A stretch of DNA of 64,000 bases from Eledone cirrhosa (lineage: Eukaryota): assembly GCA_964016885.1 (NCBI GenBank), contig OZ024742.1, forward strand, positions 193,998,001 to 194,062,000. Reading direction: 5' to 3'. This document shows, in pieces, positions 1-62,676 of the stretch (position 1 is the stretch's first letter; each line of letters begins with the position of its first letter). The notes under the pieces are model-generated. The model was given only the letters and a program-made list of their open reading frames with translations, was not told the DNA's origin and ran no database searches. The translations under genes were made by a program, and so were the position numbers.

Positions 1-3000
1 ACATTACGGCAGGCCTGACTTATTTATAACTTTTACTTGTAACCCCAATTGGAAGGATATTGAGGGCGAACTCCTTCCAGCTCAGAACGCCTCACGCCGA
101 CATAATCACGCGGCTAGAGTATTCCGTCTTAAGTTACTTAAGCTTATGGATCTTATCAAAATAGGTTAGGTTTTCGGACCAGTTCAATGTGACATGTACA
201 CAATCGAATGGCACAAAAGGGGCCTCCCCCATGCTCATATTCTTATTTGGCTGACAACAAAGGTTAGTCCTAACGACATTGATAGGATCATCTCTGCAGA
301 ATTATCCGATCCTCCCACTAACAAGGACTTGTACATGAAAGTTAGGGCACATATGTTGCATGGACCATGTTGGTCTGGCTTTAGAACTGATTTACCATGC
401 GTTACAGGCAATAAAAGATGCACTAAAACATGACCCCGTCAATTTATTCGCGATACTCAGACTGGCAATGATGGCTACCCATTATATAGACGGAGGCGAC
501 GTGAAGAGGGAGGTTTTACGGCCAGGGTTAAGAATGGCGAGGTTGACAACCGATGGATCATTTCCTATTGCCCTCTCTTGCTCAGAACTTTCAACGCACA
601 CATTAATGTTGAATTCTGCAGCTCCGTCAAGTACATCAAATACATTAGTAAGTATATTAATAAGGGTTCTGACGCTGCTTCGTTCGGTATACTCAACGAA
701 AACAATAGAGACGAAGTAACGCAATTCCAAGTGGGGCGCTACAGCGAGGCCTTTTGGCGAATCTTCGGTTTTCCAATACATGATAGGCACCCTTCAATTG
801 TAAAATTAGATGTACACCTAGAACACGGTCAACGGATGTACTATACCAACAAAAATGCCGCTGAATTGGCACAACCCCAAGGGAGACAACTTTAACTGGA
901 TTTTCCAAACTGTGCGAATACGATGACTTCGCAAAATCCTTGCTGTATCCCCAGGTGACATAATACCACACATGGAATAAAACATGGAGTCGCAGAAAAA
1001 CTGGCCAACCAGTTATTGAGGTTCCCGGGATCAAATTCACTAATTGCTTGGAGCGAGTGTATACGATTCCACCAAATCAACACGAGTGCTTCTATATTCG
1101 AATGCTACTGCATGAGGTCAAAGGACCGACCAGTTTTCAGGACCTCAGAACAGTAATCGTGTTTGGTCTACATACAGAGATGCCTGTTTAGCTCGTGGAA
1201 TGCTTGGAGATGACTCTCGATTGGATGCAACCTTGACGAGGATCGCTTCATCACACTTAGCTGGAGGCCTACTAGAGTTCTTTGCAAAGTGTCTTCACTT
1301 ATGTAACAATTGTGAACCCTAAACATTATGGTTGAAGTTTCGGAACCAACTGTCTGAGGACTTCCTGCACCAGGCTGAACTACTACTTCCTGACATAGAA
1401 GTAGATTTGAGTGATGATTTATACAATAAAGAGCTTATAGACATAGAGGACAGGATTTTCCTTATGGGTTGGAATGCCTTGCCAGCATACGGTCTGCCAC
1501 AAACCCACCGCACTGATTCTAATAAAATTCCCACTCTCATCATCCAAGAAACATCTTATGATGTCGACACTCTAGCTAGATATGTGTTTGAAATGGAACC
1601 AAAACTTCTTCCCGATCAGCAATTTGCATACAACACTATCACCAACTATGTATTTCATCGATGGGGTGGCATCTTCTTTCTTGATGACCCTGGAGGCACT
1701 GGAAAACCCTTTGTTACTAAACTTCTTCTTACCCAAGTTAGACAGAATGAAGTTATTGCAATAGCCGTAGCATCATCTGACATTGTAGCTACACTACTTC
1801 CTGGCGGCAGGTCAGCACACTCTACCTTTAAGCTTCCGCTTAACTTGGTATCAGCTGAAACACCGCTCTGTGACATCACCGAGGATAGTCCAAGAGCAGA
1901 ACTGCTACGACGGTGCAAACTGATTGTGTGGGATGAATGCTACATGGTTCACAAATGAGCTATTGAGGCCTTAGATAGAACACTGAAAGACATTAGAGAC
2001 CGTCAGGAGACCATGGTGTAACTATTTTGCTTTCAGGAGACTTTCGACAAACTTTGCCGGTTATTCCAAAGGGCACCAGAGCGGATCAAGTTCGGGCCTG
2101 CCTGAAGTCTTCTCCATTGTGGCCACAGCTAACAACACTTCGTCTGACCACTAACATGCGTGTTCAACTGCATGGCGATACTGTGTCTGAAAAATTTGCT
2201 GAAGACCTTCTCATACTTGGCGACGGCAAAGTACCTTCAGATGTGGATGGAGACATTACATTCGACAATATATGCTGTTTGGTTAACATTATTGAAGATC
2301 TCAAGGCAGCCGTTTTTCCCAGCTTGGTAGATAATTACCGCAATCATACATGGCTGTGTGACAGGGCTATATTAGCTCCTACAAATGTCATTGTCTCCGC
2401 CATTAATCGCCAAATGCTTGAAAGTCTTCCTGGAAATGATAAGAATTTTAAGTCTATTGATACCAATGTTGATGCACATGATGCGGTCAATTATCCCATT
2501 GAATTCCTCAATTCATTGGATATTTCCGGTCTACCTCAACATATTTTGTCTCTCAAAGAAGGATGTCCAGTTATATTTCTCAGGAGTATAACTGCTCCCA
2601 AGCTTTGCAATGGTACACGCCTTGTTGTCAATAGGATGTCACAGCACATTATTTATGCTACGATTATGTCGGGTGTGGAAAAGGAGATGTTTTAATACCT
2701 ATGGTAACTCTTACTACATCGGGAGTGGATGCACCCTATTCTTTTAAAAGAACCCAATTTCACCCTCGTGCTGCATTTGCTATGTCCATCAACAAGTCCC
2801 AGGGTCAGACTTTATCTGTGGCAGGCCTTCACCTGGAGGAGCCATGTTTTTCACATGGTCAATTCTACGTTGGATGTTCTCGAGTTGGCTGCCGGAACAA
2901 CCTCTTTGCTTTTGCTCCAAACAGAAAAAAAAAGAATATTGTATACCGTGAGGTTTTATAGGGTTTTATTTTTGGTTCAAAACGGCAATGTTACACCGAC

Positions 3001-3901
3001 TGCCTTAAATATATAGCGTCTACGAAACCTGTATTCAACATCGGTGCAGTGCATTCTATTGACACCTAGGCCTCTAAGGACCAGCATTGCTCGCAAATCA
3101 AAGCGGACTTTGAAATCGATGCTTTCGATTGTTAAGGACGCCACTCCAGTCGCTGACAAGTCAGGCGTTTAATACATAGACACACACAACTTGGCGCATA
3201 CATACAACGATTGTTCCCTCATTTCTTTCATTGTTTCAATATGCATTCCGACCTAGACAACACGCAACAACAGCATTTCTGGTGCATCGAAGTAAATTTT
3301 AGTCATCATTCTCAATTGCATTTGAAGATGCAATGGAAGAAGAATTTCTGTTTTGTTAATTTCAGCGAGTCTTTTTGGTGAATATGGCTTTTGCTGCAGC
3401 TGTCCATTTCGCATGGTCTGGCTGTCTATAATCTGTCCGACAAACTCACCATGGGTATGTTATGAGCTCTTCATAATTTATACTTAAACATCTACGCTAT
3501 TACATTGTCAATATTTTTTATCACAGGTGCGAACCTCTTTGATGCTGCCTGCCCCCTCGACTTTGGATAACGCATTTTTATTTTGTTTTTCATGTCCATC
3601 CAATTTTTTTGTTTCAAAATAACTGATAGTTTGGTTACCCTGATGTTTTTCTCCGAGACAACTTTCGATTTTTACCAGTGCAGTTTTTATTCCCAGCATC
3701 CTCTTTTTTTTTAACATTCGGTTTATGGTTATTTTTTCTTACCTTCATAAGGCATGCTGTTGGTTGAGGAATATTAATCAAAAGTACCACAGGAAAGTCT
3801 ACACTGTATACTTTACAGTTTTAAACCATGAAAGGAACTTAACATTGTAACTTTAACACAGTTACTGAGCAGCTCCGAGCAACGCCGGGCTTTACTGCTA
3901 G
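1..3901 (+). mobile_element. Decayed autonomous Helitron (5' end lies outside the window)
   Basis: RepHel coding remnants at 2-2961, then a 3' terminus: imperfect GC hairpin CCGAGCAACGCCGG (3875-3888) followed by CTAG (3898-3901) and T. Confidence 0.9.
2..2961 (+). pseudogene. Helitron Rep (HUH) / PIF1-like helicase, broken by frameshifts and stops
   Basis: Rep motifs FITFTCNP, EWHKRGLPHAHIL and KYISKYINKG; helicase motifs PGGTGK, LIVWDE, LSGDFRQ, AMSINKSQGQTL and FSHGQFYVGCSRV, spread over several frames. Confidence 0.95.
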
Positions 3902-4127
3902 TATATGCTATAGAGATTTCTGATTAAAAACAAGAATGGAATTAATATAATAATAATGAATTTATTTTGTCTGATATTGAGCAGGGCCGTGATTAGTTTT
4001 TCGCGAATTATATGATATTAGATGTACTTCAACATATACTAACTTATAAGAATATTAACAATATAACTATATATGTGAATACTTACTGTAGAACGGGAAA
4101 ATCTTCTAATGAATGTTTATATAATTC

Positions 4128-4192
<65 letters not shown>

Positions 4193-4426
4193 TATGCATG
4201 TATACGTACATACATATATGCATACAGACGTACAGTAGCATGCACATAAATATATATATATACATATATACACACATATGCATACAGGTACACATACATA
4301 TATGCACGTATCAGTTTAGCGGCGCTAACGTCGCTTTGTTCGTTTGTAAACAAACTGAACAGCCTGAATTTATGCCATACGGTGTTAAGGCAACCACGTC
4401 ACCTTTTTGTTCAACACTGACACAGG

Positions 4427-4471
4427 AACGATGTACTAGTTTCAAGCTTGTTAGCTATCATCAGCACCGTT
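4427..4471 (-). ncRNA. Minimal type I hammerhead ribozyme
   Basis: Reverse complement of the 5779-5823 motif. Confidence 0.85.
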
Positions 4472-4886
4472 TACCCATCTGCCAGATAGTTGAACGTTCG
4501 AAAGTATATACTTTCCTTATGAAAATTAACGGCTGAGCAGCCTAATTTGCATATTGAGTGAGTTAAATCGGTCAGGCATACCGAAAACGATAAATTGAAA
4601 CAAAATGAAAACGAAATTTCATTTCTCACTCTTAGTATGGCACTTACTTAAATGTAAGTATGCATGTATACGTACATACATATATGCATACAGACGTACA
4701 GTAGCATGCACATATATATATACATATATACACACATATGCATACAGGTACACATACATATATGCACGTATCAGTTTAGCGGCGCTAACGTCGCTTTGTT
4801 CGTTTGTAAACAAACTGAACAGCCTGAATTTATGCCATACGGTGTTAAGGCAACCACGTCACCTTTTTGTTCAACACTGACACAGG

Positions 4887-4931
4887 AACGATGTACTAGT
4901 TTCAAGCTTGTTAGCTATCATCAGCACCGTT
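4887..4931 (-). ncRNA. Minimal type I hammerhead ribozyme
   Basis: Reverse complement of the 5779-5823 motif. Confidence 0.85.
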
Positions 4932-5778
4932 TACCCATCTGCCAGATAGTTGAACGTTCGAAAGTATATACTTTCCTTATGAAAATTAACGGCTGAGCAG
5001 CCTAATTTGCATATTGAGTGAGTTAAATCGGTCAGGCATACCGAAAACGATAAATTGAAACAAAATGAAAACGAAATTTCATTTCTCACTCTTAGTATGG
5101 CACTTACTTAAATGTAAGTATGCATGTATACGTACATACATATATGCATACAGACGTACAGTAGCATGCACATATATATATATATATATACATATATACA
5201 CACATATGCATACAGGTACACATACATATATGCACGTATCAGTTTAGCGGCGCTAACGTCGCTTTGTTCGTTTGTAAACAAACTGAACAGCCTGAATTTA
5301 TGCCATACGGTGTTAAGGCAACCACGTCACCTTTTTGTTCAACACTGACACATCGTTCCTGTGTCAGTGTTGAACAAAAAGGTGACGTGGTTGCCTTAAC
5401 ACCGTATGGCATAAATTCAGGCTGTTCAGTTTGTTTACAAACGAACAAAGCGACGTTAGCGCCGCTAAACTGATACGTGCATATATGTATGTGTACATGT
5501 ATGCATATGTGTGTATATATGTATATATATATATATATGTGCATGCTACTGTACGTCTGTATGCATATATGTATGTACGTATACATGCATACTTACATTT
5601 AAGTAAGTGCCATACTAAGAGTGAGAAATGAAATTTCGTTTTCATTTTGTTTCAATTTATCGTTTTCGGTATGCCTGACCGATTTAACTCACTCAATATG
5701 CAAATTAGGCTGCTCAGCCGTTAATTTTCATAAGGAAAGTATATACTTTCGAACGTTCAACTATCTGGCAGATGGGTA

Positions 5779-5823
5779 AACGGTGCTGATGATAGCTAAC
5801 AAGCTTGAAACTAGTACATCGTT
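5779..5823 (+). ncRNA. Minimal type I hammerhead ribozyme
   Basis: AACGGTG-CTGATGA-tAGCTaacaAGCTt-GAAA-CTAG-TA|CATCGTT: 7-bp stem I, palindromic stem III ACTAGT, GUA cleavage site after 5816. Confidence 0.88.
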
Positions 5824-6244
5824 CCTGTGTCGGTGTTGAACAAAAAGGTGACGTGGTTGCCTTAACACCGTATGGTATAAATTCAGGCTGTTCAGTTTGT
5901 TTACAAACGAACAAAGCGGCGTTAGCGCCGCTAAACTGATACGTGCATATATGTATGTGTACCTGTATGCATATGTGTGTATATATGTATATATATATAT
6001 ATATGTGCATGCTACTGTACGTCTGTATGCATATATGTATGTACGTATACATGCATACTTACATTTAAGTAAGTGCCATACTAAGAGTGAGAAATGAAAT
6101 TTCGTTTTCATTTTGTTTCAATTTATCGTTTTCGGTATGCCTGACCGATTTAACTCACTCAATATGCAAATTAGGCTGCTCAGCCGTTAATTTTCATAAG
6201 GAAAGTATATACTTTCGAACGTTCAACTATCTGGCAGATGGGTA

Positions 6245-6289
6245 AACGGTGCTGATGATAGCTAACAAGCTTGAAACTAGTACATCGTT
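6245..6289 (+). ncRNA. Minimal type I hammerhead ribozyme
   Basis: Identical to 5779-5823; cleavage after 6282. Confidence 0.88.
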
Positions 6290-6654
6290 CCTGTGTCAGT
6301 GTTGAACAAAAAGGTGACGTGGTTGCCTTAACACCGTATGGCATAAATTCAGGCTGTTCAGTTTGTTTACAAACGAACAAAGCGACGTTAGCGCCGCTAA
6401 ACTGATACGTGCATATATGTATGTGTACCTGTATGCATATGTGTGTATATATGTATATATATATATATATGTGCATGCTACTGTACGTCTGTATGCATAT
6501 ATGTATGTACGTATACATGCATACTTACATTTAAGTAAGTGCCATACTAAGAGTGAGAAATGAAATTTCGTTTTCATTTTGTTTCAATATATATATATAT
6601 ATATATATTAAAATACAAATATTAATAAAATACATGTTCTTTTTATCAATTACA

Positions 6655-6704
6655 TTTGATTATATATATTTCAGATGTACAACAGTAAGTCCTCATCAGA
6701 CAAA
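6655..6704 (-). ncRNA. Hammerhead ribozyme motif (somewhat decayed)
   Basis: TTTGT-CTGATGA-GGActTACtgttGTAcaTCT-GAAA-TATATA-TA|ATCAAA. Confidence 0.65.
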
Positions 6705-7302
6705 ATATAATGATGCATGGCATACCCTGAGATGTTAAATGGTTAAGATTTAATCAAGGTAGTGATTAACCTAAGAGAAAGTTTAACATGTATACCCTTA
6801 TAATGAGAAAATGCGAAAACGTAATAAATTCAATAGAGAATGTGTGAGTAAGAAAAACGTTGCTTAATGTAACAGTTATAGAGATTTTAAAATGTATGAT
6901 ACTACAATTTATCAGGGAAAGCGGTAAATGAGAGCCACTGAGATAATATATATAGAGAGAGGGAATATATGTAGAAGGAGATTTTTCGAAAGTTAAACGG
7001 TTAAGTTTGAAAATATTTAATTTATTCTATTTTAGGGTGAAGAATCAAAATGTTCGGGGGAGGGGGGGGGTTAAATTGGTGGTTATTTATTAGTTTTGTA
7101 AATTCAGTAAGTGTTTTAACATTTCTAAACTTCGGAATTTTATGATGATAACTTTTAAAGGATTTAGCTGGCCAGCGGAAAATAAAGTTTACACTGTCGA
7201 ATATTTTTCTAAATGTAAGCTTTACCGGAGTTATTCATTGTCAAAATATATGGTATGTAAATCTTATGAAGTATTTATTGTTAGAAATATTTAAATAACT
7301 AT

Positions 7303-7390
<88 letters not shown>

Positions 7391-7397
<7 letters not shown>

Positions 7398-7635
7398 ATT
7401 ATGTAATAAACAACATAAGGCAATTATTCCATTTACCAGTGGTTTCTTAAAAGCAAAAGGTTTTGCTTTCAATCCTCAGAATGAAAAATCCTGGTTTGTT
7501 TATTGAATATTGATTCTATTCAATAAACAAACCAGGATTTTTCATTCTGAGGATTGAAAGCAAAACCTTTTGCTTTTAAGAAACCACTGGTAAATGGAAT
7601 AATTGCCTTATGTTGTTTATTACATAATAATAATA
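7391..7635. repeat. 245-bp perfect palindrome (7-nt loop) with one HHR per arm, inside a (TA)n-flanked insertion
   Basis: Arms 7391-7509 and 7517-7635 are reverse complements; loop TTGATTC. Confidence 0.9.
7540..7599 (+). ncRNA. Type I hammerhead ribozyme (mirror copy at 7427-7486, minus strand)
   Basis: TTTCATT-CTGAGGA-TTGAAAGCAAAAccTTTTGCTTTTAA-GAAA-CCAcTGG-TA|AATGGAA; all three stems pair; GUA site. Confidence 0.85.
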
Positions 7636-7697
7636 ATTAAGCTCTGTTGCTTACATAGAGCACTCTTTTTTCCTGGACTTTTCCGATGGAATTACTT

Positions 7698-7731
<34 letters not shown>

Positions 7732-8333
7732 TGAGCCTGTATATTTTAGGTAAATGATAACGAAAATAAAAATAAGATAATATATTTAGGCATGCTAAAG
7801 TTAAATATATACGTGTATATAAAAGGGTGTAAATGCATTGATTATTCATAGCTCAAAATAAATGATAATCAATAAATTTAACTAAGCATGATGTATACAT
7901 GGAGGTTTATATGAATATAAATTAGGTATTATTGATACAGTATACTTTAGGTAAGTGATAACGGTTATCATGTTATATAATAAGGTTCGAAACGTCTTAT
8001 AATTAAATATATATATATATATATATAAGTAAAGCAAGGCAAGTTTACACTGTTGAATATTTTCCTAAATATAAACTTTACCGAAGATAATCAATTGTCA
8101 ACATATGGCATGTAAATCTTATGAAGTACTTATTGTTAGAAATATTTAATTAACGATTATGTATATAGATAATTATTAACGAGCCAGTATATTTCAGGTA
8201 AATAACGAAAAAAATATAATAGATTGAGGCATGCAAGTTTAAATATATACCAATATAACAGGGTGTAAATGCATTAATTATTCATAGTTCGAAATAAATA
8301 ATAATCAAAAACACATGAAAAATTCACAGTTAG

Positions 8334-8415
<82 letters not shown>

Positions 8416-8540
8416 GAATATATGTATAATATATTTGGCACTATAATCTATGGTAAATTAAATATATTTTGGAGATCTTGCGCTATTACTTTAAAGTAGT
8501 GACTATGTCACTTACTTCTTTTTTCAACAAAAAAGGGAGA

Positions 8541-8586
8541 TAATCTGACGGATCTGTTTCACACTGTTGGTGATCATCAGAGCTTA
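8541..8586 (-). ncRNA. Minimal type I hammerhead ribozyme
   Basis: TAAGCT-CTGATGA-tCACcaacaGTGt-GAAA-CagatccG-TC|AGATTA; GUC site; stem I has one mismatch. Confidence 0.75.
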
Positions 8587-9104
8587 GTACTCGCCGATGT
8601 TTGTTGAAAATTATAGATGCTGGATTCCTATAGATTTCTCGTAACAATCAGCAACTGGTTATACAGAACGATTGCCGGTCCAGCAAAAATTGAAAATTAG
8701 GATTGGTGCTCTGAAATAGCGATGTATACATGAATATATGTATCGTATATTTGGCTATATACTGTGTGCTTGATTAAAAACATTTGTAAAACCTTGCGCT
8801 ATATACATATATTCAAGTTTAACCTAGAAGTTAATGGTAAAAAACAAAATAAATTTAATCAAGGTTTCTGTGCCGTGACAAGCAACACGAATCTACGGGG
8901 TTGAGAAGCGAGTTCTTTAACTACAATCATGCCTGCACATACTGAGAAATGGGGACGTGAAAATGAATTTCATGGCTTACAACATATTGAACAATTATTC
9001 TAACCTTTAAGGTGTCTTCACAGTACATTTGATTGAATATAGAATTATATGAGCATTAAACAACGATGTTGCTTCCATGTAGGGAAGTTAATAAAAAGTA
9101 ACAT

Positions 9105-9620
9105 AATAAATGGCACAAGGGCAGCAATTATCGCAGTGCATTACTGGTACTTTATTTTATCGACCCCCGTAAGGATGAAAGGCAAAGTTAACCTAGGAAT
9201 AATAATGGTTTCTGATTTAGGCATAAGGCCGACAATTTAGTGGAGGGGAAATTCGAGTATATCGATCCCAGTGAATTACTGTTTTATTGAGCCCTTATGG
9301 AAAAGTTCACCTCGAAGGTATTTGAACAGAAAACGTAAAATCTGTATGTTGTCCAACACTCTACTGATATTACCAATACACTGTCCTATGGAATACCATA
9401 ATGGTTTCTGATTTAGGCGCAAGGCCAACAATTTTGGGAAGGTGAAATTTGAGTAAATCGATCCCAGTGCATTGCTGGTACTTTATTTTGACGACGCCGT
9501 AAGGATGAACGCGAAAGCTAACATCAGTGGGATTTGAACTCAGAACGTAAATGAACGTAACTCTATGCCGCATGGCATGTTGTCCGATGCTCTACTGAAC
9601 TGCCAATCCAACGCCCTATG
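9105..9620 (-). mobile_element. Cluster of three tandem SINE copies
   Basis: Repeated motifs gcataaggccgacaattt...atcgatcccagtg...ctggtacttattttatcgacccc...ggatgaaaggcaaagtt; reverse complement of the family at 12119-12312. Confidence 0.75.
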
Positions 9621-10140
9621 AAATATCATAATAACAATGACGTGTGTGTATTGTAATTTCTACAGCATTGAAAATGAATAGTTTGTCGGTGGGCCCACGG
9701 TGAGGAAGGCTACATATTATACTGACCGGTATAGTATGAGTATTTTAGTATGAGGACAATAATAAAACCAGCCACAGTACAAGCAGATGTAGTGAATTTA
9801 ATTAAGAGAAAATATTAAATATGTTCAAAGTAAGTTAGCAGAGACTACAAAATTAAATTATCTCGTTATCCATCAGCAAATATATATTTCGCCTAGTGAA
9901 CATTTTTCATTCTTGATGATGCAGTATATCCTAAAAGCCAGCACCTCATGTTAACAATGAGTGGATATGGCTAACAATGAACGTTTCTCAGACTGGCACT
10001 GTGTCAAGGAACAAAATACAAAGACCGACTATGTATTATACGGTCACCGTAGGCTATACACGTGAAGATAATTACGGCTGCAAAATAGATGGGAGAGAAT
10101 TGCTAGAATGAAAGAGGAAATTCCTAAAATGTATTTCCAA

Positions 10141-10229
10141 TTCTTCTTCTTCTTCTTCTTCTTCTTCTTCTTCTTCTTCTTCTTCTTCTTCTTCTTCTTC
10201 TTTTTCTTCTTGTTTTTCTTCTTCTTCTC
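10141..10229. repeat. (TTC)n microsatellite
   Basis: Direct reading. Confidence 0.95.
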
Positions 10230-10789
10230 ATGGATGTTAAGCAACCATGTTGCTTGGAGTCTAACCTGGGTCCCCTGTTGGTTGGTTTTGCACGTAAAAT
10301 CTGTGCAGGAATTCTTTCCTAAGCGATTAGTTTTATTCGTTTCATTCATTAGACTGCTGTTTGCCGGACTGATAAGTTTCTCTATATAAACATACAAAAA
10401 TCTGGTTTCCCGCACACACGCATGAGTACATTTTTTTTTTTTTATCAAGGTATATCTGTAGAACTCCGTTGCAGATCTTTTCCTTTTTTAAATCCACTTA
10501 AGTTCTGATGAAATACGATGTGTATGAGAATAGTAATGGCTTATTGTACTGTGTGAGCTATGAGAGGAGTGGGGATTAACGGGCTGTGCCACTGCTTCAT
10601 ATAATATCCCGGTAGTTTACAAATGTCATCTCAGCTCTCTGCAGTCATTGTATGTTTTTGTCAAGAGCTCTTAAATTTTAGGGTATCCAATGATGCGTAC
10701 TGAGCAACGAACAAACCTGACGTTTTTGGTCCGCCGGTGAAAATTCCGGAATACTTCAGCATGTGAACTGAGATAAGACGATGTCACAC

Positions 10790-11336
10790 TCAAGGATTCA
10801 AAGACGGACGCTAGGCCGTGGAAGATGACCTCATGGTCGGAAGGATTTCAACGAGCATGACTAAGGCCAACGTTGGTTGTGTGAGGCATTGGGAGGGGGG
10901 GGGGGCGTAGCGATCGTCGCCTGACTGTTTGACTGATCTCAATGAGCTGGACATAAATCGTGAGAACAGTTGGAAGTTTATCACCGAAGATTTGGGCACA
11001 CAGAAATCTGGGCGAAGATGGTGCCGAAGCAGCAGAACGAGGACCAGATGAAGCGGTGCATGTATATGTGTCAGGACATGCTTGAGCATCTTGGAACCGA
11101 ACAAGACTCGCTGGAGAGTTATCACCAGTGATCTTCGTTTATCGGACGTGGCATCCATTTAGAGCCCTGTAACGACGGAGTTGCGCAGAATCCCGGAAGA
11201 TTGCTTCCATGAGTGAATGAAGGCGTGGCGTAATAAGGGGGATTATTTCGAAGGGGATAACTTCAAATTTTTTGTTTGGATTGGAAATATTTTTGGGCGA
11301 CCCCAGTCCTGTTTCTTTTTTGACGCACCTCATATA
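10790..11336 (+). mobile_element. Mariner-type (Tc1/mariner) DNA transposon remnant, internally deleted
   Basis: Degenerate transposase peptides (FKDGR...EDDLMVGRIST, KMVP, RVITSD, GDYFEGD) and a mariner-like 3' TIR end ttttttgacgcacctcata. Confidence 0.7.
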
Positions 11337-12014
11337 TGTTAGACATCCTTTCAATTGAAGAACAACAGGCTGAAGGTTATTTAACGTATAACACCACGTT
11401 AATAACTGATGCTACTTCCTTATTATTTCAATCGGCACTAAATTTTATATATTCTATTGTACATTTGCCTATTTTCCTCCAACGGTTAAACATTTTCTAT
11501 ATTGTTTTAAATTATCTAAAATAAAAATTGACTTTTTCTTTAGCAAATTTTTATTTACATACATTCTTTGTTGTGAATCCGATTTGTCACAGGAGTTGCT
11601 TAATGTAATTTCCAGTGAACGAAGATCTCGAAATTTGAAAAAAAAAATTTTCAGAAATTAGATTCGTTTCACTTCATCTCGCTGAAGTTTTTGCAGTCAA
11701 ATTGATGAAAGAGATCTGTACACACACTCAAACACACTTATACTCTCACACACACACCCATACACACAATAACACACACATATATGAACACACGAACACA
11801 CACACACACGGGCGCGCGCGCACACACGCGAACACACACACACACGCACCTACATATATATATATATATAATATGGTATAAGAATGGACTAATATAACTC
11901 CTTAAATAGCTCAAATACTATACAGGCTAAAATCTATAATTTGATTTTCAGTTTTCCAAAATCAGTCAGTTGTCTATTTCATTCACTTTTCGATTATTCC
12001 GTCTTACATTATTA

Positions 12015-12742: not shown

Positions 12743-15700
12743 TGTTTGTAGAGTACTGATGATTCTTTTCTATCTTGAAGCTCTCGCCAGTGTTCATTTA
12801 ATCGTTCTGCTATACTACGAGCTATCTCTCCTATGTACACTATATTCTTATTTTACATTGTCCTTCAGTATATATTATGCTATACACTATATTTCTAGTT
12901 TACAGTTAATATGGGGGCTTAGTTTACAGATTGTGCATTTCTTATCTATACAGGGAGGTCTTTGAAAAGGGTATGTATTACTAATAACTATTTTTATGGA
13001 GGTACCTGGTCTTTCTACTATCTTAATATTTAGTTTTAGTTTATCTAGGGCCCTTCTAAATTTGTAAGCTAGTTCACCTCTAGGGGTTGTATTGATGAAC
13101 ATTACACTCTGGTATGTATTGCTATCATACCATGAGTTTATTATATTAACCTTATTCCGAGTTCTTTCTATTCTATTCCAAAATGTGCTCCTATACAAGG
13201 GGCATGTCCCATTTGTATCATTATTTAAATCCCGCCGAGGTTGACTTTGCCTTTCATCCATACGGTGTCGATAAAATAAAGTACCAGTCATGCACTGGGT
13301 ATTTGCTGGCCTTGTGCTTAAAGTAGAAACAATTATTTACCATTTTATTTCATTTGGTTCTGGCCCCTCTATATACTCTAAATTTATCTCTCTTATTAAA
13401 ACTGCATACGGTGGATGAAGTGTTGTATATGTCTCTTTAGTTCTTTGGGGTTGCACATGCGGAACACGTTTCTCATCACCCGTACTAAATCCGCAATCAG
13501 CATGTTGATTTTGGTGTGATACGAAACAGCTGAGTTTCGGTGGATCAGATATTTGGAAGTCATGTGTTTTGCATAATGGGAATGGAAGATTTGTTTTGTT
13601 GTTATTAATGGATTCTAACCAGCGCTCTGTGTCTAGTACAGGTAATCGATGGGTGGCGTGTTTGCTTGGGTAATCTATAGAAACTCTAATACTCTGGTGG
13701 ATGGAGTTAGCTATTTGCTGGATGCTTTCCATGGTGTTTTTCTCTAATTCCTGACTGTTCTCTAGTGGGGGTGTTTTTACAACGATGTTTATATCATCAA
13801 CGTAGCGAGAGTACAATATCAGAGTTAAGAGGTTGCTGTCTTCTAATTGTTCTTTAAGTTTATTGTCCCACCATACCATGAATAGCTTAGCTATGTCGCC
13901 TGCAATGCTAACACCAATGGCTGCTCCCTCTTCTTGGGCATATGTTTTTCCATTAAATTTGAACATATGTTCCTTAAGGGTTAGTTTTATACTGGCCCCC
14001 ACCGCATGTGCAATCATTTTCTTTAGTTCATCATGGTTTTTGGGGGTCCGTATGACTCTGGTCCACCCGTTCCATCTGTCTGTGTGGGTTTTATTGGCCA
14101 TTGAGGATATGGTAGGTGGTCTGCCTCTAGCTAGCCTTGTCGGGAAGAGGTTGCTAAGGCCATACGTATCTAGATAATCATTACTATGAGTAAGTTTAAG
14201 TATGAGTCCCAGCTCACTGGTATCAATCCCATGGAATTCAATATTGCCCTCACTGATCCTTTCTACGCATTTCTCCACAGCAAAATCCACGTTAATGGAT
14301 GGTTATAGGGACAAAACCTCCATACTACCTATTATACAGTCTGTTAGGTCCCTAGATCGGTTATTTTCGCTGATTTTGCTGAGGAGATCCTCCGTGCTGT
14401 CACATATATCCGGGGACATTTCAATGATCGGGCGTACGATCAGGGAGAGGAAGTAGGAAATTATGTAGTTACTAGCAATGTTAGCTCTACAGACTGGCCT
14501 TGTCTGTGGTCTTGTGACTGGATCACTTTTCATCTTATGGTCTTTTCGAAGTTCATACAATGCTGACACGTCATTGTTCCAGGCCTGGAAGTTGTTGGCA
14601 GTTTCTTTATTGGGCTGCATTATGTTTGTCCACATCATCATATGAGCGTTGAGGGTTTTCTCCCTATCCTCATGCTCTTGTGGTGTTACTTCTCTTGTGT
14701 TAGTGATGCGGGTTTGCATTGCCTGGATGTAGTTTGACAGACTGTCAACCGACATTCTTCTAGACTTGTCTGTTGGAAAGCATGCAATCTCTCCATTACG
14801 TGAGAGCTGCATGAGCTTACGCAAGCCATTTGCAGATTTTTCTCCCAGTTGCTTCTTGCTATACTGTTCTATAATATTTCTAAGATTAGATCTAGCTATA
14901 GTAAATTGTGGTTCTGTTTGTTCATCGACCTGTGACGGCAATTGCGTGCGTTTGTTAAAAGCTAAAGTCGTAGCGTGGATTCGTCGTAGATCGAAGGACA
15001 TATCGGAAGGGTTATAAGTAGAATTCCAGGCAGCTGTGTTATGTGTTCTATTGCTATTATTATTGCTAGTTATGCTGTTTCTATTTCCACCAGCAGCCTC
15101 ATGGTTGTTTCTATGTCTCTCCTTATTACTCCTGTCTCTTTCCTCTGGCTCATTGTTATTATCTACTCTATTTTTGTGTCTGTGTGTTCGTCTCTGTCAG
15201 TATCGATAGTCTCCCTTCTTCTTTCAATCCCATGACCGTCCCTTACCTCTGTGTTACTGTCATTATATTTTTATGTGTTTGTGTGTATGTTAAGATTGTG
15301 GCGGTGGTGAGAGGAATAGGATGCGTGTGTGTTGTTGTTGTTATTGTTGTTGGCTCTCTGTATTTTGTTATTGTTGTGTGTGTTGTTGTTATTATTGTTG
15401 ATTTTGCTGTTTGTGTCTGTGTGTCTGTTGTTGCTGTCTCTCTGTATGTTATTATTGTTGTTGTGTGTGTTGTTGTTGTTGTTATCGGTGTTTGTGTCTG
15501 TTGTTGTTGGGATGTGTGATGTGTGTGTGTGTGTGCGTATGTTGGTACTTTTTTTTGTTGTTGTTGTTGTTGTGGTTGGTTTTGAGGTCCCAACGTAATT
15601 TTGTAAATGATTTTTCTATTTCTGAGAAGCATCTTATCATATTTACCTTAATATATGTTGCATATTTAGGTGTTAGCTGTAATATGGATAGTTCATCTGG

Positions 15701-25761: not shown

Positions 25762-26065
25762 TATATATCAAAGAAGAAATTAAAAGATGGTTAAAAATGT
25801 TCCATTTATTTTATTATGCGCATTTCGAAAACAACATCATCCTGGGACAAAAATTGTATTCTCATCAGATAAAATAAGTTAACATGATATGAGGCCTAAA
25901 AACACTTGTGAACAAGTGTTTCTAGGTCTCATATCATGTCATGTTACATTATTTTATCTGATGAGAACACAATTTTTTTCCCGAGGATGATGTTGTTTTC
26001 GAAATGCGCATGATAAAATATATGGAACTTTTTTAATAATCTTTTAATTTCTTCTTTAATATATA
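25762..26065. repeat. Diverged ~300-bp palindrome with an HHR in each arm (25807-25876 minus; 25950-26020 plus)
   Basis: Centre acttgt-ga-acaagt. Motif TATTTTAT-CTGATGA-G...C-GAAA-TGCGCA-TH|ATAAAATA; the minus copy has AUA, the plus copy has non-cleavable AUG. Confidence 0.8.
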
Positions 26066-31036: not shown

Positions 31037-33921
31037 AAGTCCTTTAATAATAATGCTGTGATATATATTTCAATGGCGAAAGTGGCCTCAATGTTCTGTG
31101 CGCCAGTCTCGCGACATCGCCAGACAGCTTGTTACATTATAAGGTTATGTTTCCGAGGCAATCCAAATTGAATCGACATGGGCACGGACGAAGTATGTGA
31201 TTTGGGGTTCTTCACCCGTTCCCCTGTGAGTACCAATTCACCCCCACTGGTCTGTGCAGGCGCAGGTCCAGGGGGAAGTTGACCATTAGCTACCGCAGAT
31301 TTAAACGAAATTCGCTTAGTCAGTTCACTCTCTCAGCCAGACAATGACCCATTCAAGCCTGCACCATAGTTTACTGCTACCCATCCCCTCTGTGGCAGTC
31401 AGCCGAAAGCCAGTGGGGATGGGAGAGTGTTAGTATTTACATGTCTCTTTATTATCTCTCACAGTCATGGACAGTATAACTGACCATCAAGCCCTAAGAG
31501 TATATATTTAATTCTATGTATCATAGTTTCATATTAGAAGTTATAAATTAGAACTAAAAACTACAATTTAAAATCGAAAATCCTAAATCAAGTATCAGAA
31601 ATTATAAATTAAAAAATTAACAATTAGAAATTAAACAATTAAATATTTTTCCAGTGAGAATCCGGATTGAGGTGAGTAGAAAAATGATAGATTGAAGTGA
31701 GTAAATAATATGCAGAGATGTTTAAGTAAGAATTTCTGAAAGGGGTCCAAATGTTACAGTTACACTATCTACATACTGAACGATGGTGCCGTAGAGTAGA
31801 ACTGAGGGTAAATTACAGTATTACGGGTAGTAGTCAATCGGGTACATAGTCGTAATTTCCATCACACGGAACAAAACCAACAAAAACATATGTAAAGTAC
31901 ACAAAAGAAAAGAACCAATGAATGAATAAATGAATGAATGAATGAGTGAATGAATGAATGCAAAAACACAGAGTACATAAATGCAACATGATCCATATTA
32001 TTGTCAATTTACTCACTTCAATCTATAATTTTTCTACTCACCTCAATCCGGATTCTCACTTGAAAAAGCTTTAATTGTTTAATTTCTAATTGTTAATTTT
32101 TTAATTTATAATTTCTGATACTTGATTTAGGATTTTCGATTTTAAATTGTAGTTTTTAGTTCTAATTTATAACTTCTAATATGAAACTATGATACATAGA
32201 ATTAAATATATACTCTTAGGGCTTGATGGTCAGTTATAATGTCCATGACTGTGAGAGGTAATAAAGAGACATGTAAATACTAACACTCTCCCATCCCCAC
32301 TGGCTTTCGGCTGACTGCCACAGACGGGATGGGTAGCAGTAAACTATGGTCAGGCTTGAATGGGTCATTGCCTGGCTGAGAGAGTGAACTGACTAAGCGA
32401 ATTTCGTTTAAATCTGCGGTAGCTAATGGTCAACTTCCCCCTGGACCTGCGCCTGCACAGACCAGTGGGGGTGAATTGGTACTCACAGGGGAACGGGTGA
32501 AGAACCCCAAATCACATACTTCGTCCGTGCCCATGTCGATTCAATTTGGATTGCCTCGGAAACATAACCTTATAATGTAACAAGCGGTCTGACGATGTCG
32601 CGAGACTGGAGCACAGAACATGGTGGCCACTTTCGCCATTGAAATGTATATCACACCATTATTATTAAAGGACTTGAACATCTGAAACTACTTCGCTTTT
32701 CCTTATTCGATATTTACTCCATCACTCCTATGGGTAATAAGTACGTTGAGTACTTGATTTGAATTTCATCAATGTTTACCCTCAGAATTTAGCTCCAATT
32801 AGTTGAGCGCTCTATGATGTAACCAATATGGTGGAGAAGAGAGGAACCAACCATGAGCTATCCCTGGAAATTCTCTATACCATGGGATGGAAACCCCTGA
32901 CACTGGACGGACATAATAATAACTTTCGGCAGGTTAAATACGCGGAAACAAAGATAAACCCCTATTTTTCTGCACCAAATCGCATTTGAACAGAAGCCCC
33001 CTCAATTCAACCTATACATGGACAAATTGACAATAATATGGATCATTTTGCATATATGTACTCTGTGATTTTGCATTCATTCATTCATTCATTCACTCAT
33101 TCATTCATTCATTTATTCATTCATTGGTATTTTTCTTTTGTGCACTTTATATATGTTTTTGTTGGTTTTGTTCCATGTCATGGAAATTACGACAATGTAC
33201 CCGATTGACTACTACCCGTAATACTGTAATTTACCCTCAGTTCTACTGTACGGCACCATCGTTCAGTATGTAGATAGTGTAACTGTAACATTTGGACCCC
33301 TTTCAGAAATTCTTACTTAAACATCTCTCTGCATATTCATTACTCACTTCAATCTATAATTTTTTTACTCACGTCAATCCGGATTCTCACTTGAAAAATA
33401 TTTAATTGTTTAATTTCTAATTGTTATTTTTTAAATTTATAATTTCTGATACTTGATTTAGGATTTTCGATTTTAAATTGTAGTTTTTAGTTCTAATTTT
33501 TACTTATAACTTCTAATATGAAACTATGATACATAGAATTAAATATATCCTCCTAGGGCTTGATGGTCAGTTATACTGTCCATGACTGTGAGAGGTAGTA
33601 AAGAGATCTCTAAATACTAACACTCTCCCATCCCCACTGGCTTTCGGATGACTGTCACAGATGGGATGTGTAGCAGTAAACTATGGTGCAGGCTTGAATG
33701 GGTCATTGTCTGGCTGAGAGAGGGAACTGACTAAGCGAATTTCGTTTAAATCTGCGGTAGCTAATGGTCAACTTCCCCCTGGACCTACGCCTGCGAAGAC
33801 CAGTAGGGATGTATTGGTACTCACAGGGGAACGGATGAAGAACCCAAAAGCACATACGTCGTCCGTTCCTATGTCGATTCAATTTGGATTGCCTCGGAAA
33901 CATAACCTTATAATGTAACAA

Positions 33922-33995
33922 GCGGTCTGACGATGTCGCGAGACTGGCGCACAGAACAGTGTGGCCACTTTCGCCATTGAAATATATATCACAGC
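33922..33995 (+). ncRNA. Type I hammerhead ribozyme with long stem II (copies: 32584-32657 +, 35293-35366 +, 31055-31128 - with core mutated to CTGGCGA)
   Basis: GCgGT-CTGACGA-tGTcGCGAGAcTGGC..GCCAcTTTCGCcATt-GAAA-TATATA-TC|ACaGC; stem I is perfect (GCTGT/ACAGC) in the 31055 copy; AUC site. Confidence 0.8.
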
Positions 33996-34122
33996 ATTAT
34001 TATTAACGGAATTGAGAATCTGAAACTACTTCGCTTTTCCTTATTCGATATTTACTCCGTCACTCCTATGTGGAATAAGTACGTTGAGTGCTTGATTTGA
34101 ATTGCATCAATATTTACCCTAA

Positions 34123-34203
<81 letters not shown>

Positions 34204-34310
34204 AAAATAAATATATATATATATAGTAATATTAATAAAATTGAAGACTAAAATCCAAAGAGGGCTCGATAAGGAAAATATATATCAAATATATAAGAAT
34301 CGTAGAGCAA

Positions 34311-34461
34311 ATATTTATTAAAATAACAGATTAAAGTTTAAGCAAAGAATCGCTGCTTTCACCCTTAACGGGATCTTCTGAAACTCAGTTTCAGAAGATC
34401 CCGTTAAGGGTGAAAGCAGCGATTCTTTGCTTAAACTTTAATCTGTTATTTTAATAAATAT
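34311..34461. repeat. 151-bp perfect palindrome (1-nt loop) of two back-to-back CAGAAGA-variant hammerheads (34335-34385 -, 34387-34437 +)
   Basis: Centre C34386; AGTTT-CAGAAGA-tCCCgttaaGGGt-GAAA-GCAG..TTGC-TT|AAACT. Same family as 16877-16942. Confidence 0.8.
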
Positions 34462-35493
34462 ATACAAAGTAAAAGAAAAAACAATAACAGGGAGTGCAGT
34501 TGCGAACAGTGTTAGTATTAGGTTGACGTTTTCGAGTGGGGGTAGGTGGACGGCGTTTCGGGCATAAACCCTTCATCAGGAGAAAGGTGGAAAGGAAAAG
34601 ATTTCCGAGAGAGTGTGATAGGGGAGTGGTGGAAAGACACGAAAAGAGAGGGGTGGTTAATGAAGGAAAACAAATAAAATGAAGATAAGTGGTGAAAGGG
34701 TTTCATATTAATTACTCACTTCAACCTATAATTTTTTTACTCACGTCAATCCGGATTCTCACTTGAAAAATATTTAATTGTTTAATTTCTAATTGTTATT
34801 TTTTAAATTTATAATTTCTGATACTTGATTTAGGATTTTCGATTTTAAATTGTAGTTTTTAGTTCTAATTTCACTTATAACTTCTAATATGAAACTATGA
34901 TACATAGAATTAAATATATCCTCCTAGGGCTTGATGGTCAGTTATACTGTTCATGACTGTGAGAGGTATTAAAGAGATCTCTAAATACTAACACTCTCCC
35001 ATCCCCACTGGCTTTCGGCTGACTGTCACAGATGGGATGTGTAGCAGTAAACTATGGTGCAGGCTTGAATGGGACATTGTCTGGCTGAGAGAGGGAACTG
35101 ACTAAGCGAATTTCGTTTAAATCTGCGGTAGCTAATGGTCAACTTCCCCCTGGACCTGCGCCTGCGCAGACCAGTAGGGGTGCATTGGTACTCACAGGGG
35201 AACGGATGAAGAACCCAAAAGCACATACGTCGTCCGTTCCCATGTTGATTCAATTTGGATTGGCTCGGAAACATAACCTTATAATGTAACAAGCGGTCTG
35301 ACGATGTCGCGAGACTGGCGCACAGAACAGTGTGGCCACTTTCGCCATTGAAATATATATCACAGCATTATTATTAACGGAATTGAGAATCTGAAACTAC
35401 TTCGCTTTTCCTTATTCGATATTTACTCCGTCACTCCTATGTGGAATAAGTACGTTGAGTGCTTGATTTGAATTGCATCAATGTTTACCCTAA

Positions 35494-35542
<49 letters not shown>

Positions 35543-45223: not shown

Positions 45224-45606
45224 CATTCTCGGATAAGATTCCTGGCGATGCGCGGACATGGGAAACTTATACAAAAATAATTCAATGGATGGATATGAGC
45301 AAGCGCGGACGAAATTTCAGTAAGTTAATTACAATAATTTTCTTATTTTACGTCTTTCATATAATTATTCTGCATCCCTTTATATTGAACCACAAAGTTA
45401 CTAAGACAAAACATATATATTTTCTAGAGTAAGTATAGATCTGTATAAATATGTTAGTAGATATACTAATTCTTTATAATTATCTCCAAATTAAACAGAA
45501 ATAACAACACATAGTACAGTATATGGAAGGAATATATTACGTTAACGCTTGAAATAGCAGAAAGAGTGTATTAACGTTCCGGACCCTACATATATATAGA
45601 TATATA

Positions 45607-47087
45607 TATTGTTATACTTTGGGAGGGTCATGTTGCCAATAAGAAACACACGCACCAGTTGCTTTCACTTCAATTTATTATAATAAATTTATAAATTTAG
45701 GAATTTATAAATTTCTGGTTGGTTTGTTCCACAACCAGATGGTTGTTTATATATTGTCAAAGTTCTTTCGTCACACATTATGTGACCTCTTCAGTGACTG
45801 GGAATTTGTTTCTTTGTTTTTGTGCCTCTCCTTTGTTCTGTCCTACGCCATCTTGTTTCTGTGTGTGTGTGTTGTGTGCTCAGTCTGCGCATGCGCCACA
45901 TCCGGGTGTCTGTGTGTGTTTATATTCGTTTGTTTATGTGTTTATTTACATGTTACAGGTTGGTTGTTTGTTCTATGTGCATATGTGTTTTCATTTTGTC
46001 CTTAATTGTAAGTTGTTTAATTGTATGTTGCTGTTCCCCTCATGTTTTCTATTTAATTTTGGTTGTAATTATTTTATGTTTATTGCCTCTGTGATTTGTC
46101 TAAACATTGCGTCTTTTCTGTGTGTAGATTCTATTTTTATTTCTATGTTCTCTAATTTACCCTTATGTTCTATTTTAGCATGTTGGTAGAGTACAGATGA
46201 TTCTTTACTATAATGAAGGTCTCGCCAGTGTTCATTTATCCGTTCCCCTACACTGTCTCAACTATGTACACTATATTTTTGTCTCTACATTGTCCTTCAG
46301 TACATCTTATGCTATATACTACATTTCTGGTTTTACAGTTACTATGGGGGCTTAATTTACAGGTTATACATTTCTTATCTATACAGGGGGGGGTTGAAAA
46401 GGGTATGTCTTGCTAATAAGTGTTTTTACGGAGGTACCTGGTCTTTCTACTATCTTAATATTGAGTTTATGTTAATTCACCTCTAGGGTTTGTATCGATG
46501 AACATTACACTCTGGTATGTATTGCTATCATACCATGAGTTTATTCTATTAGCCTTATTCCTAGTTCTTTCTATTCTATTCCAAAATGTGCTCCTATACA
46601 AGAGGCAGGTCCCATTTGTGTCATTATTTACCATTGTTTCCCATTTGGTTCTGGCTACTCTATACACTCTGATTTTATCTCTCTGAATGTAACCAGAGAA
46701 CTGCATACGGTGGATGAAGTGTTGTATGTGTCTCTCTAGTCTTCGAGGTTGCACATGCGGGACACGTTTCTCATCACTCGTACCAAATCCGCAATCAGTA
46801 TGTTGATTTTGGTATGGTCCGGAAAAAGCTGAGTTCCGGTGGATCAGATATGTTACTTAAGGGTTAATTTTATGCTGGACCCCACCGCATGTCACAATCA
46901 TTTTCTTTAGTACATCGTGGTTTTCGGGTTTCCGTATGGCTCTCGTCCACCCTTTCCATCTATCGGTGTGGGTTTTCTTGGCCATTGAGGTAATGGTAGG
47001 TGGTCTTGTCGGGTACAGGTTGCTAAGGTCATATGTGTCTAGGTAATTATTACTATAGGTAAGTTTAAATAGGAGTCCCAGCTCACT
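45607..47087 (-). mobile_element. Inverted, internally deleted arm of PLE family A (HHR at 45756-45798)
   Basis: Reverse complement of about 48295-50240, lacking ~421 bp that includes YVDD. Confidence 0.85.
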
Positions 47088-50000: not shown

Positions 50001-50294
50001 GGACAGAACACAGGAGAGGCACAAAAACAAAGAAAAGAATCCCCAGTCACTGAAGAGGTCACAGAATGTGTGACGAAAGAACTTTGACAATATATAAACA
50101 ACCATCTGGTTGTGGTACCAACCAACCAACCGGAAATTTATAAATTCCTAAATTTATAAATTTATTATAATAAATTGAAGTGAAAGCAACTGGTGCGTGT
50201 GTTTCTTATTGGCAACATGACCCTCCCAAAGTATAACAATATCGGTTTCAACACACGTTTTCAGATAAAGAATCTTGCTAAACAAATTCAGAAA

Positions 50295-54122: not shown

Positions 54123-54174
54123 AAATATGATAATAATGGAGCTGCGGCGTTGCAAATGGGATATATATATATAT

Positions 54175-58630: not shown

Positions 58631-58667
58631 CTCTCCCCTTCTCTTTGTCTCGTCTATCTCTCTCTAA

Positions 58668-58703
<36 letters not shown>

Positions 58704-61700: not shown

Positions 61701-62570
61701 CAAGATTCGTGACAGATAGACATATAATAACAGCCATAAATACATAACAGGTAATCTTTTTTTTTAATAACATAAACTGTGTATAACATAAAACTTTCCT
61801 TTAATATCTTAACAATTATAACATTTTAAAGATTCCTACATCTTGAATTAAATTAAAGAATCCTTTATGCTTCGTGTATATATATTATATAGGTAGTTAG
61901 ATATGTTATGTATTTTATAAGTGTGTATATATATTTATATGTATTTTGCGTGTGTATACGTGTTATATGTTATGTAGTTCTCTAGTAATATATGGATTTC
62001 TTAATGTATAGATCCCAGTTTTTAATATATTGATCTCAATTTTTAAATGATTAACTAAACATCTAATCATATTTAAACAATGGTTAATTTCTCATATTAT
62101 ATATGTATATTCCATTCATGATTATTAACATTTCTAATTTTATTTATTCATTTCATCTCAATCGTTAAGTTAACTCAACAAGATATGACTTAGAGGTTTT
62201 CGTTCTCTCCCCTTCTCTCTGTCTCCTCTCTCTCTATATATATTTCTCTCTCTGTTGTTTTGGTCTCTCTCTCTCTCTCATTTTCTCTCTCTCCTTCTTT
62301 ATCTTTTTCTTTCTCTGCAACCCAACGGCTTATTTTAAAAATAAAAATATCCAATACTAATAATAATATAATTAAACAAGTCCACTATCCGGGAGCTTCC
62401 AACAGTAATAGTTGCATTTTTTAAGGGTATGTCAATATTTATTTATAAAACTGATCTATTTTATATTTTATCTGACGAAAGTACACCATAATTTTACTTG
62501 GTGTCCTTGAAATATTATATAATGAAATAAATATGGTTTTATAAATATAGTTTCCATTTGTTAATATCGT
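58628..62570 (+). mobile_element. PLE family C, right arm; retains RT, lacks GIY-YIG
   Basis: ATG at 59150; SDKTNNLY, GGLYRDD, NFLDVTLNL, SNHP, CNCRNKSNCPL; pseudo-LTRs at about 58630-59145 and 62200-62570; ends at (TA)n. Confidence 0.88.
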
Positions 62571-62676
62571 ATATATATATATATATTTTATAGAGGGAGC
62601 TTCCAAAAAATTTTACTCTGCCATGTATTGAGTACCTTACTTACTGTGGTTATCCCCGACTCAACCCGGGACCTAC

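Follow-up and report, generated by a model that had tools for sequence, protein, structure and literature searches.

The window analysed here, a 64,000-nucleotide stretch of the Eledone cirrhosa genome (contig OZ024742.1), contains at 4189-6588 a palindrome built of tandem units with a hammerhead ribozyme (HHR) motif, and the palindrome turns round at the predicted cut site of the ribozyme. This raises the question whether the inversion point records the end of a self-cleaved RNA and how two opposed arms come to be joined there. A preliminary description of the locus had proposed a single event, in which reverse transcriptase (RT) ran off the 5′ end of a self-cleaved RNA, the cDNA snapped back and primed its own second strand, and the hairpin was integrated opened out. 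The element is of a known kind, and its head-to-head layout has been described for Penelope-like elements (PLEs), whose life cycle has been called undefined and whose HHR has been called unclear in function (PMC8557442, main text).

Anatomy of the locus

Sequence inspection, TRF and alignment agree that the locus consists of two opposed arms between (TA)n runs, at the positions that the preliminary description had given (Table 1). We numbered the unit u1-466 with u1 at 5351, the base just after the predicted cut. The left arm leaves the junction at u10-13 and runs through two HHRs to u245, where it ends in (TA)30; the right arm (5350-6588, plus strand, 2.66 units of 466 nt) runs from u0-3 through two HHRs to u306 within (TA)n. 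The outer ends are unequal, u245 on the left and u306 on the right, which leaves the right arm with a tail of 61 nt; neither this nor the U-U at the base of stem II (below) had been noted in the preliminary description. As claimed, the right arm starts with CATCGTT at 5351 and the next cuts are predicted after 5816 and 6282. The alignment also shows the ACA microhomology and the 7-nt loop at the junction, the ACA being compatible with both arms.

Table 1. Features of the palindrome (positions in the window) and retrozyme-PLE chimeras at other loci (locus:positions).
Feature	Position	Strand	Remarks
(TA)30 target run, left flank	4131-4190		TRF and sequence
Left arm, tailless	4189-5352	-	2.5 units, unit 460-468 nt; alignment
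Type I hammerhead motif	4428-4470	-	predicted cut between 4434 and 4433
Type I hammerhead motif	4888-4930	-	predicted cut between 4894 and 4893
Inversion junction	5350-5359		ACA microhomology 5350-5352 and unpaired 7-nt loop 5353-5359
Right arm unit 1 (u1-466)	5351-5816	+	first base is the base 3′ of the predicted HHR cut
Long hairpin rich in TA/TG, about u123-245 of the unit	5473-5595	+	fold; length differs among copies
Type I hammerhead motif	5780-5822	+	GUA, predicted cut after 5816
Right arm unit 2	5817-6282	+	private transitions at 5832, 5876 and 5919
Type I hammerhead motif	6246-6288	+	predicted cut after 6282
Right arm partial unit u1-306	6283-6588	+	alignment
Tail u246-306	6528-6588	+	outer end of right arm only
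(TA)n target run, right flank	6588-6608		sequence
Chimera	L074:6238-7050		head-to-head
Chimera	L089:1729-3100		sense; YRDD-type family
Chimera	L093:300-2840		sense; YRDD-type family
Chimera	L163:1067-2606		sense, 13 nt overlap; YVDD-type family

Five substitutions distinguish the two arms, at 5497, 5832, 5876 and 5919 and one in the outer left unit, and the lengths of the TA stretches differ as well; the positions reported before were off by at most 1 nt. Two of the changes in the second unit of the right arm (unit R2), G16 and T60, are found singly in other copies, the full haplotype only at this locus; the R2 changes may or may not stem from a second template. A stretch of 88 nt in one unit, 5832-5919, holds three of the five (two A>G, one C>T), with gene conversion, RNA editing of the template and a consensus error as candidate causes.

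Within the palindrome (4189-6588) every stop-free frame is shorter than 120 aa, in keeping with the earlier statement that the unit is non-coding; with no ORF for RT or GIY-YIG the element is not an autonomous PLE. The GC content is 0.34-0.37, and the monomer folds far more stably than shuffled sequences (z = -8.1), to which the TA/TG hairpin contributes much. Both flanks being (TA)n, the target is AT-rich microsatellite DNA, inside which a target site duplication is unreadable.

The hammerhead motif

The locus carries four type I HHR cores, with CUGAUGA at 5786+, 6252+, 4924- and 4464-. The motif combines a stem I of 6-7 bp and the CUGAUGA...GAAA core with a stem II of 4 bp that has U-U at its base, with the palindrome ACUAGU as stem III and with the triplet GUA. 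We compared 129 HHR rows from 87 of the 93 loci sampled below; in this set, whose conservation is inflated because the rows were picked by HHR likeness and many of the loci via the adjoining word, the U-U at the base of stem II is present in all 129 rows and the core positions, N7 excepted, are unchanged in 125-129. Variation is confined to tolerated positions, namely N7 (U/C 72/57), loop II and one pair of stem I (G-U 89, A-U 30, U-G 7 of 129 rows). A U-U at the base of stem II also occurs in the weakly cleaving axolotl retrozyme HHR_Amex2 (PMC7229834, main text).

A comparison of window 1-12000 with Rfam gave 99 hits at E ≤ 1, only miRNA-like hairpins below the gathering threshold and none of them a hammerhead family. 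The call of one type I HHR per unit, made already in the preliminary description, therefore rests on the motif scan and on covariation within the family. For the isolated motif the minimum-energy model gives another fold and not the hammerhead.

The retrozyme family in the genome

The first 25 nt of the unit (u1-25) are present in 15,100 exact copies in the 3.0-Gb genome. Extrapolated from the 58 clusters found per 100 matches (five of these clusters were left unfetched), the family comprises about 9,000 loci, and a non-coding family of roughly this size is a large natural experiment on tandem and inverted insertion by PLEs. For a positional sample we moved along the first 68 Mb of contig C1 and took 93 loci as they came, anchored on the exact 25-mer, which favours longer arms. 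A word from the microsatellite region, tried as an unbiased anchor, proved subfamily-specific (122 matches) and was dropped. Because automatic mapping of the arms runs too far in the TA/TG region, we placed the junctions by visual inspection.

Unit length ranges from 426 to 556 nt in 30 full units, and in 30 units identity is 98% within a locus versus 93% between loci. Arms have from less than 1 to 9 units. Throughout the 93 loci, 3′ ends followed by TA lie at two fixed places, u245 (44 times) and u306-309 (at least 50 times), which gives a tail of about 61-64 nt. Clean head-to-head pairs made of a tailed and a tailless arm were found at no fewer than 36 of the 93 loci, a number from which about 15 loci with a junction in the TA/TG region or with untyped ends were kept out. 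Those kept out include the apparent exceptions to the one-tail rule, L097, L108, L197, L208 and L209, beside about 10 untypable loci.

With a tandem non-coding unit, an intact HHR core (two consecutive complete HHRs in each arm at 4189-6588), low GC and dispersed monomers to multimers in high copy number, the family has the sequence features of non-LTR retrozymes; the head-to-head inverted, 5′-truncated copy and the tail at one end are those of a PLE-type insertion. The identification as a non-LTR retrozyme of PLE type is upheld, and judged by its sequence the locus at 4189-6588 is one insertion of this HHR retrozyme family.

At two loci of the family, L216 (G000:C1:158367671) and L068, the junction is a perfect fold-back that lies on a palindrome within the unit, either the stem III hexamer of the HHR or a 16-nt palindrome at u385-400. 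Runs of 16 organisms from 15 studies share 33-62% of the sampled unit words (query 5700-5930), as word matches only, so that wide spread or horizontal transfer is no more than conceivable; no RNA run is among those listed with the words. Contigs for these runs were obtained for X1 and X18 only, and those of X1 cover the unit. Unit reads numbered zero in the raw DNA run X23 and the raw RNA run X24 alike, and none came from X15, a sampling that is uninformative.

The inversion point and the predicted cut across the family

The preliminary description had equated the inversion point with the cleavage site, which holds at 4189-6588 and is not supported as a rule for the family. The 36 typed junctions have 72 arm starts, of which 3 come within 5 nt of the cut where 1.5 are expected (p = 0.2), and at 33 junctions neither arm comes so close; counting the left-out locus L108, where an arm starts at u463, the near-cut starts would number 4 rather than 3. 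Mapping the junctions of other copies relative to the cut, the check that the preliminary description had proposed, yielded to a large extent the scattered placement which it had named as evidence against its reading. The other HHR-bearing palindromes in the window also have their inversion points away from the cut.

A genome-wide test was made with 25-mers whose upstream letters -2 to -4 are all unlike the unit, the matches being fetched and classified. True 5′ ends were found 24 times in 15,100 copies at u1, about 23 times in 14,034 at u21 (where 9 of 40 raw matches with an indel-like prefix were counted as indels unfetched), about 16 times in 15,225 at u456 and 7 times in 10,602 at u381. 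After correction for detection odds the rate at u1 is 1.2 times that at u21 (p = 0.34), 1.8 times that at u456 (p = 0.04) and 2.4 times that at u381 (p = 0.02), or 1.6 times that of the pooled controls (p about 0.05). This pattern looks like a modest step at the cut and shows no sharp peak.

We also searched with a gapped pattern for near-symmetric junctions next to the HHR and obtained 20 matches, which represent 18 loci. At 6 of these an arm starts at the cut and at 12 an arm runs through the HHR, so that cut RNA cannot have been the template of the latter. A second ACA microhomology, at u449, is used two to three times in this set versus five times for the one at the cut, and its reuse means that microhomology together with a short loop explains part of the recurrence of the junction. 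Across the family the inversion point is mostly not the cut.

Junctions at the cut site

A small class of cut-site junctions does exist in the family. The junction of the locus at 4189-6588 is found identically at six further loci (L036, L046, L050, L051, L056 and L175), that is at seven independent loci with differing flanks and subfamilies. Among 23 inversion junctions with an arm at u1 the partner starts within 40 nt in 12 (p = 0.00015 against a uniform placement), compared with 9 of 34 in the controls (p = 0.057 for the difference). Where the arms are long the partner is of matched length in 4 of 6 cases at u1 versus 1 of 18 in the controls (p = 0.006, or 0.02 without the locus at 4189-6588), in a test of arm length that was devised after the first loci had been seen.

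A further contrast concerns the number of HHRs passed. In samples that are small and with classes called by eye, both arms have equal HHR passes in all 11 determinable near-symmetric cut-site junctions (partner start u2-80; L042, L052 and L057 omitted as truncated) versus 2 of 11 through-HHR junctions (L230 undetermined), the through-HHR loci having been fetched after the test was devised. This gives p = 0.0002, also without the locus at 4189-6588, and for long arms only the figures are 4 of 4 versus 0 of 9. If both arms were copied up to one and the same physical end of an RNA, matched lengths would be expected. The excess of ends at the cut is estimated at about 33, on the order of 1% of junctions; by this estimate about 99 in 100 junctions ignore the cut.

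The junction at 4189-6588 probably marks the end of an HHR-cut RNA, and both halves of the palindrome are likely to have been copied from RNA that had cut itself at the mirror point, which is a rare case in the family. The earlier proposal that RT ran off at the 5′ end of a self-cleaved RNA can be retained as probable for this locus, given the seven identical junctions and the 11 matched pairs, and finds no support as a general rule of the family. The existence of cut-site junctions points to cutting by the ribozyme in vivo.

Origin of the inverted arms

In the 36 typed junctions the lengths of the two arms are uncorrelated (rho 0.07) and either arm may be the longer one. At 13 of them the arms are staggered, neither being contained in the other. 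Self-copying of a cDNA gives only a contained second arm, so these 13 junctions cannot be self-copies. Staggered arms and swapped tails lead us to infer that in this family both target strands are primed and the two cDNAs then joined through 2-3 nt of microhomology. Inverted arms consisting of the tail only (L070, L080, L192 and L193) are the product expected when priming at u306-309 is stopped at u245, and short templated inserts at the junctions of L046, L056, L123 and L134 fit such end joining. Two-strand priming at two fixed sites with a microhomology join fits the family better than a single snapped-back hairpin.

For the locus itself the explanation that we favour, with reasonable though limited confidence, is a young 466-nt retrozyme, inserted head-to-head in (TA)n and made by a PLE-like RT that primed on both target strands and copied a linear, HHR-cut RNA. 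A borrowed PLE protein would nick both (TA)n strands, and one cDNA would start at u245, the other at u306-309. The template would here be a partly cleaved linear trimer, on which both cDNAs would pass two uncut HHRs and run off at the cut. One 3′ end would then pair over 2-3 nt (TG/TGT on CA/ACA) 9 nt inside its partner, and repair would fill in the rest; alternatively the 3′ end might briefly fold on itself and then anneal to the partner, which would keep part of the earlier fold-back idea. Several points tell against this explanation: the template has to carry a cut HHR beside two uncut ones, 5′ ends show no sharp peak at the cut, most near-symmetric junctions next to the HHR pass through it, the isolated motif is not predicted to fold as a hammerhead, and among the PLE copies compared none has the HHR or tail of the unit. 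Circular or long uncut templates may account for most of the other copies, whose junctions are scattered and whose arms, of up to 9 units, are unrelated in length. For the family as a whole we judge the chances to be about even that PLE machinery primes both target strands at the two RNA sites that bound the tail, with circles giving rise to scattered junctions and self-cleaved linear RNAs to matched cut-site arms.

At 4189-6588 the geometry allows the two-cDNA and the hairpin model alike. According to the latter a single cDNA was started at u306 and extended past the cut end; it then doubled back on 2-3 paired nt, served as its own template as far as u245 and went into the chromosome as an opened hairpin. 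Self-priming has indeed been proposed for PLE junction palindromes (PMC3846280, main text), the tailless arm of our locus starts 9 nt inside the tailed arm and also ends inside it, and 6 of the 11 near-symmetric cut-site junctions have the same polarity. In the other five (L046, L047, L048, L049 and L050), however, the tail sits on the partner arm, which is impossible for a self-copy, as are the staggered junctions. Furthermore the three substitutions of unit R2 are missing from the mirror unit, though they may be later mutations, and structure prediction for the DNA of the cDNA end (folded on unit 2) does not give the fold-back. As the only route the hairpin is refuted; of the snapped-back, self-primed hairpin of the preliminary description there is left a possible origin of this one locus, and an unlikely one.

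The junction could also have come to lie at the cut by chance. Synthesis on a template that was circular or uncut would then have halted in the neighbourhood of the HHR, and the ACA/TGT microhomology with its 7-nt loop would have favoured the join. This reading would leave unexplained why matched arm lengths are confined to cut-site junctions, long arms included, and why both arms at 4189-6588 have two HHR passes, and 5′ ends are 1.8-2.4 times rarer at the two upstream controls than at u1. On the other hand the 5′-end rate at u1 equals that at u21, two thirds of the near-symmetric junctions (12 of 18) pass through the HHR, the ACA at u449 is reused, the sampled arm starts are not significantly enriched at the cut, and HHR cleavage is dispensable for PLE insertion in vitro (PMC11167929, main text). 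On balance we regard chance as distinctly improbable. A fold-back read or assembly artefact, which the preliminary description had already argued against, is most improbable, since the flanks are unrelated, the outer ends unequal and the arms separated by substitutions and TA lengths, since the layout with a single tail recurs at 36 or more of the 93 loci sampled and since the junction itself is found at six further loci that differ in flanks and subfamily; no read obtained and none of the contigs listed from runs X1, X18, X2 and X3 bridges the junction, which carries no weight.

The single locus is ordinary for its family and belongs to a rare subclass of a common family, the anatomy of the family being the more interesting result. 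The fixed starts, the single tail per palindrome and the staggered arms tie the two-strand, two-start chemistry known in vitro to inversions in a genome. This anatomy offers a model of inverted PLE insertion that can be tested and what appears to be an indirect trace of cutting by the ribozyme in vivo. If the two-template reading of the family is true, the genome holds footprints of in vivo ribozyme cleavage together with a family-scale test of how the inverted repeats of PLEs originate.

Possible helper elements and neighbouring repeats

The window contains broken PLE-like copies with YVDD RT and GIY-YIG-like pieces at 45606-50242, which is head-to-head with HHRs at 50050+ and 45794-, and at 12887-15196. 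A YRDD-type PLE-like cluster of tandem and inverted copies lies at 54167-62600 (HHRs at 62472+ and 54352-), and the region 25800-26000 has a related HHR (25868-) beside nested inversions upstream of the cut. We assume that these are PLEs from their YVDD/YRDD and GIY-YIG-like motifs; a Pfam search of five PLE-like ORF pieces returned no PLE family. When the unit was compared with the PLE copies of the window and of five loci there was no match beyond 24 nt at E 0.8, and none of these copies shares the HHR or the tail. Four loci join a retrozyme arm straight to PLE-like coding sequence with no TA at the join (Table 1). These chimeras may be template switches or products of twin priming on mixed RNAs, or they may have arisen when later deletions brought together adjacent elements of a common TA hot spot.

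Other repeats of the window are of different kinds. A small head-to-head palindrome of another HHR family (7394-7637; cores at 7547+ and 7479-, 7-nt loop at 7510-7516) has its inversion about 76-82 nt upstream of the predicted cut. A unit of 1.34-1.37 kb is repeated in tandem and inverted orientation at 31037-35540, where the scan found no HHR and there is no 120-aa frame. A frame-broken PIF1-like helicase (Pfam PF05970) with a Rep-like piece upstream lies at 434-2695, presumably a Helitron remnant. Outside the window, beside the retrozyme of L063 (5100-7068), a different tandem repeat of 310 nt with an HHR-like core is present in five plus copies and one inverted copy, likely a second retrozyme family with the same layout.

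Comparison with known systems

Our search of the literature, incomplete in coverage and confined to main texts, found no paper on retrozyme palindromes, on two-strand priming behind PLE inversions or on cut-site junctions. Metazoan non-LTR retrozymes (PMC7229834; bioRxiv 10.64898/2026.07.22.740005) resemble the family described here in their non-coding tandem unit with one type I HHR, in a GC content under 45% and in their thousands of dispersed monomers to multimers; the unit of 426-556 nt is longer than the RNAs of 170-400 nt reported for them. The main texts of both papers do not treat head-to-head insertions, tails or junction positions. Reverse transcription of circular RNA into tandem cDNA has been proposed for retrozymes (PMC7229834, main text). 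Their origin from PLEs was proposed in 2020 and 2026, the later paper deriving them from the pLTRs of PLEs (bioRxiv 10.64898/2026.07.22.740005, main text) and reporting that 8 of 9 Xenopus retrozyme dimers failed to cleave.

Insertions of EN+ PLEs, as described in the main texts of PMC8557442 and PMC3846280, likewise have a head-to-head inverted copy at the 5′ end, a tail often at one end only, microsatellite targets, an HHR in the repeat and microhomology at 5′ junctions. They differ in having an ORF and a tail of 30-40 nt, compared with no ORF, about 61-64 nt and arms of up to 9 units here. The model proposed in 2013 for head-to-head PLE junctions invokes self-priming and an antisense template (PMC3846280, main text), whereas the staggered and tail-swapped arms of the present family favour two sense-templated cDNAs.

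In vitro the Poseidon PLE of Anolis cuts and extends both target strands, uses AT-rich targets and has two internal RT start sites bounding the tail (PMC11167929, main text). The same main text predicts a dimer, names uncut RNA as the main substrate, reports no RNA-seq ends at the cut and does not tie two-strand priming to inverted insertions. Compared with Poseidon, a minority of genomic junctions here appears to record cut RNA.

In LINE-1 twin priming each of the two strands of the target primes synthesis, which leads to an inverted arm joined by microhomology, and the tail-only inverted arms of our family resemble this classic product. The present family differs from LINE-1 in that the second site is fixed by the element (u245 versus u306-309) and not by chance complementarity, and in that the templates would be multimeric or circular.
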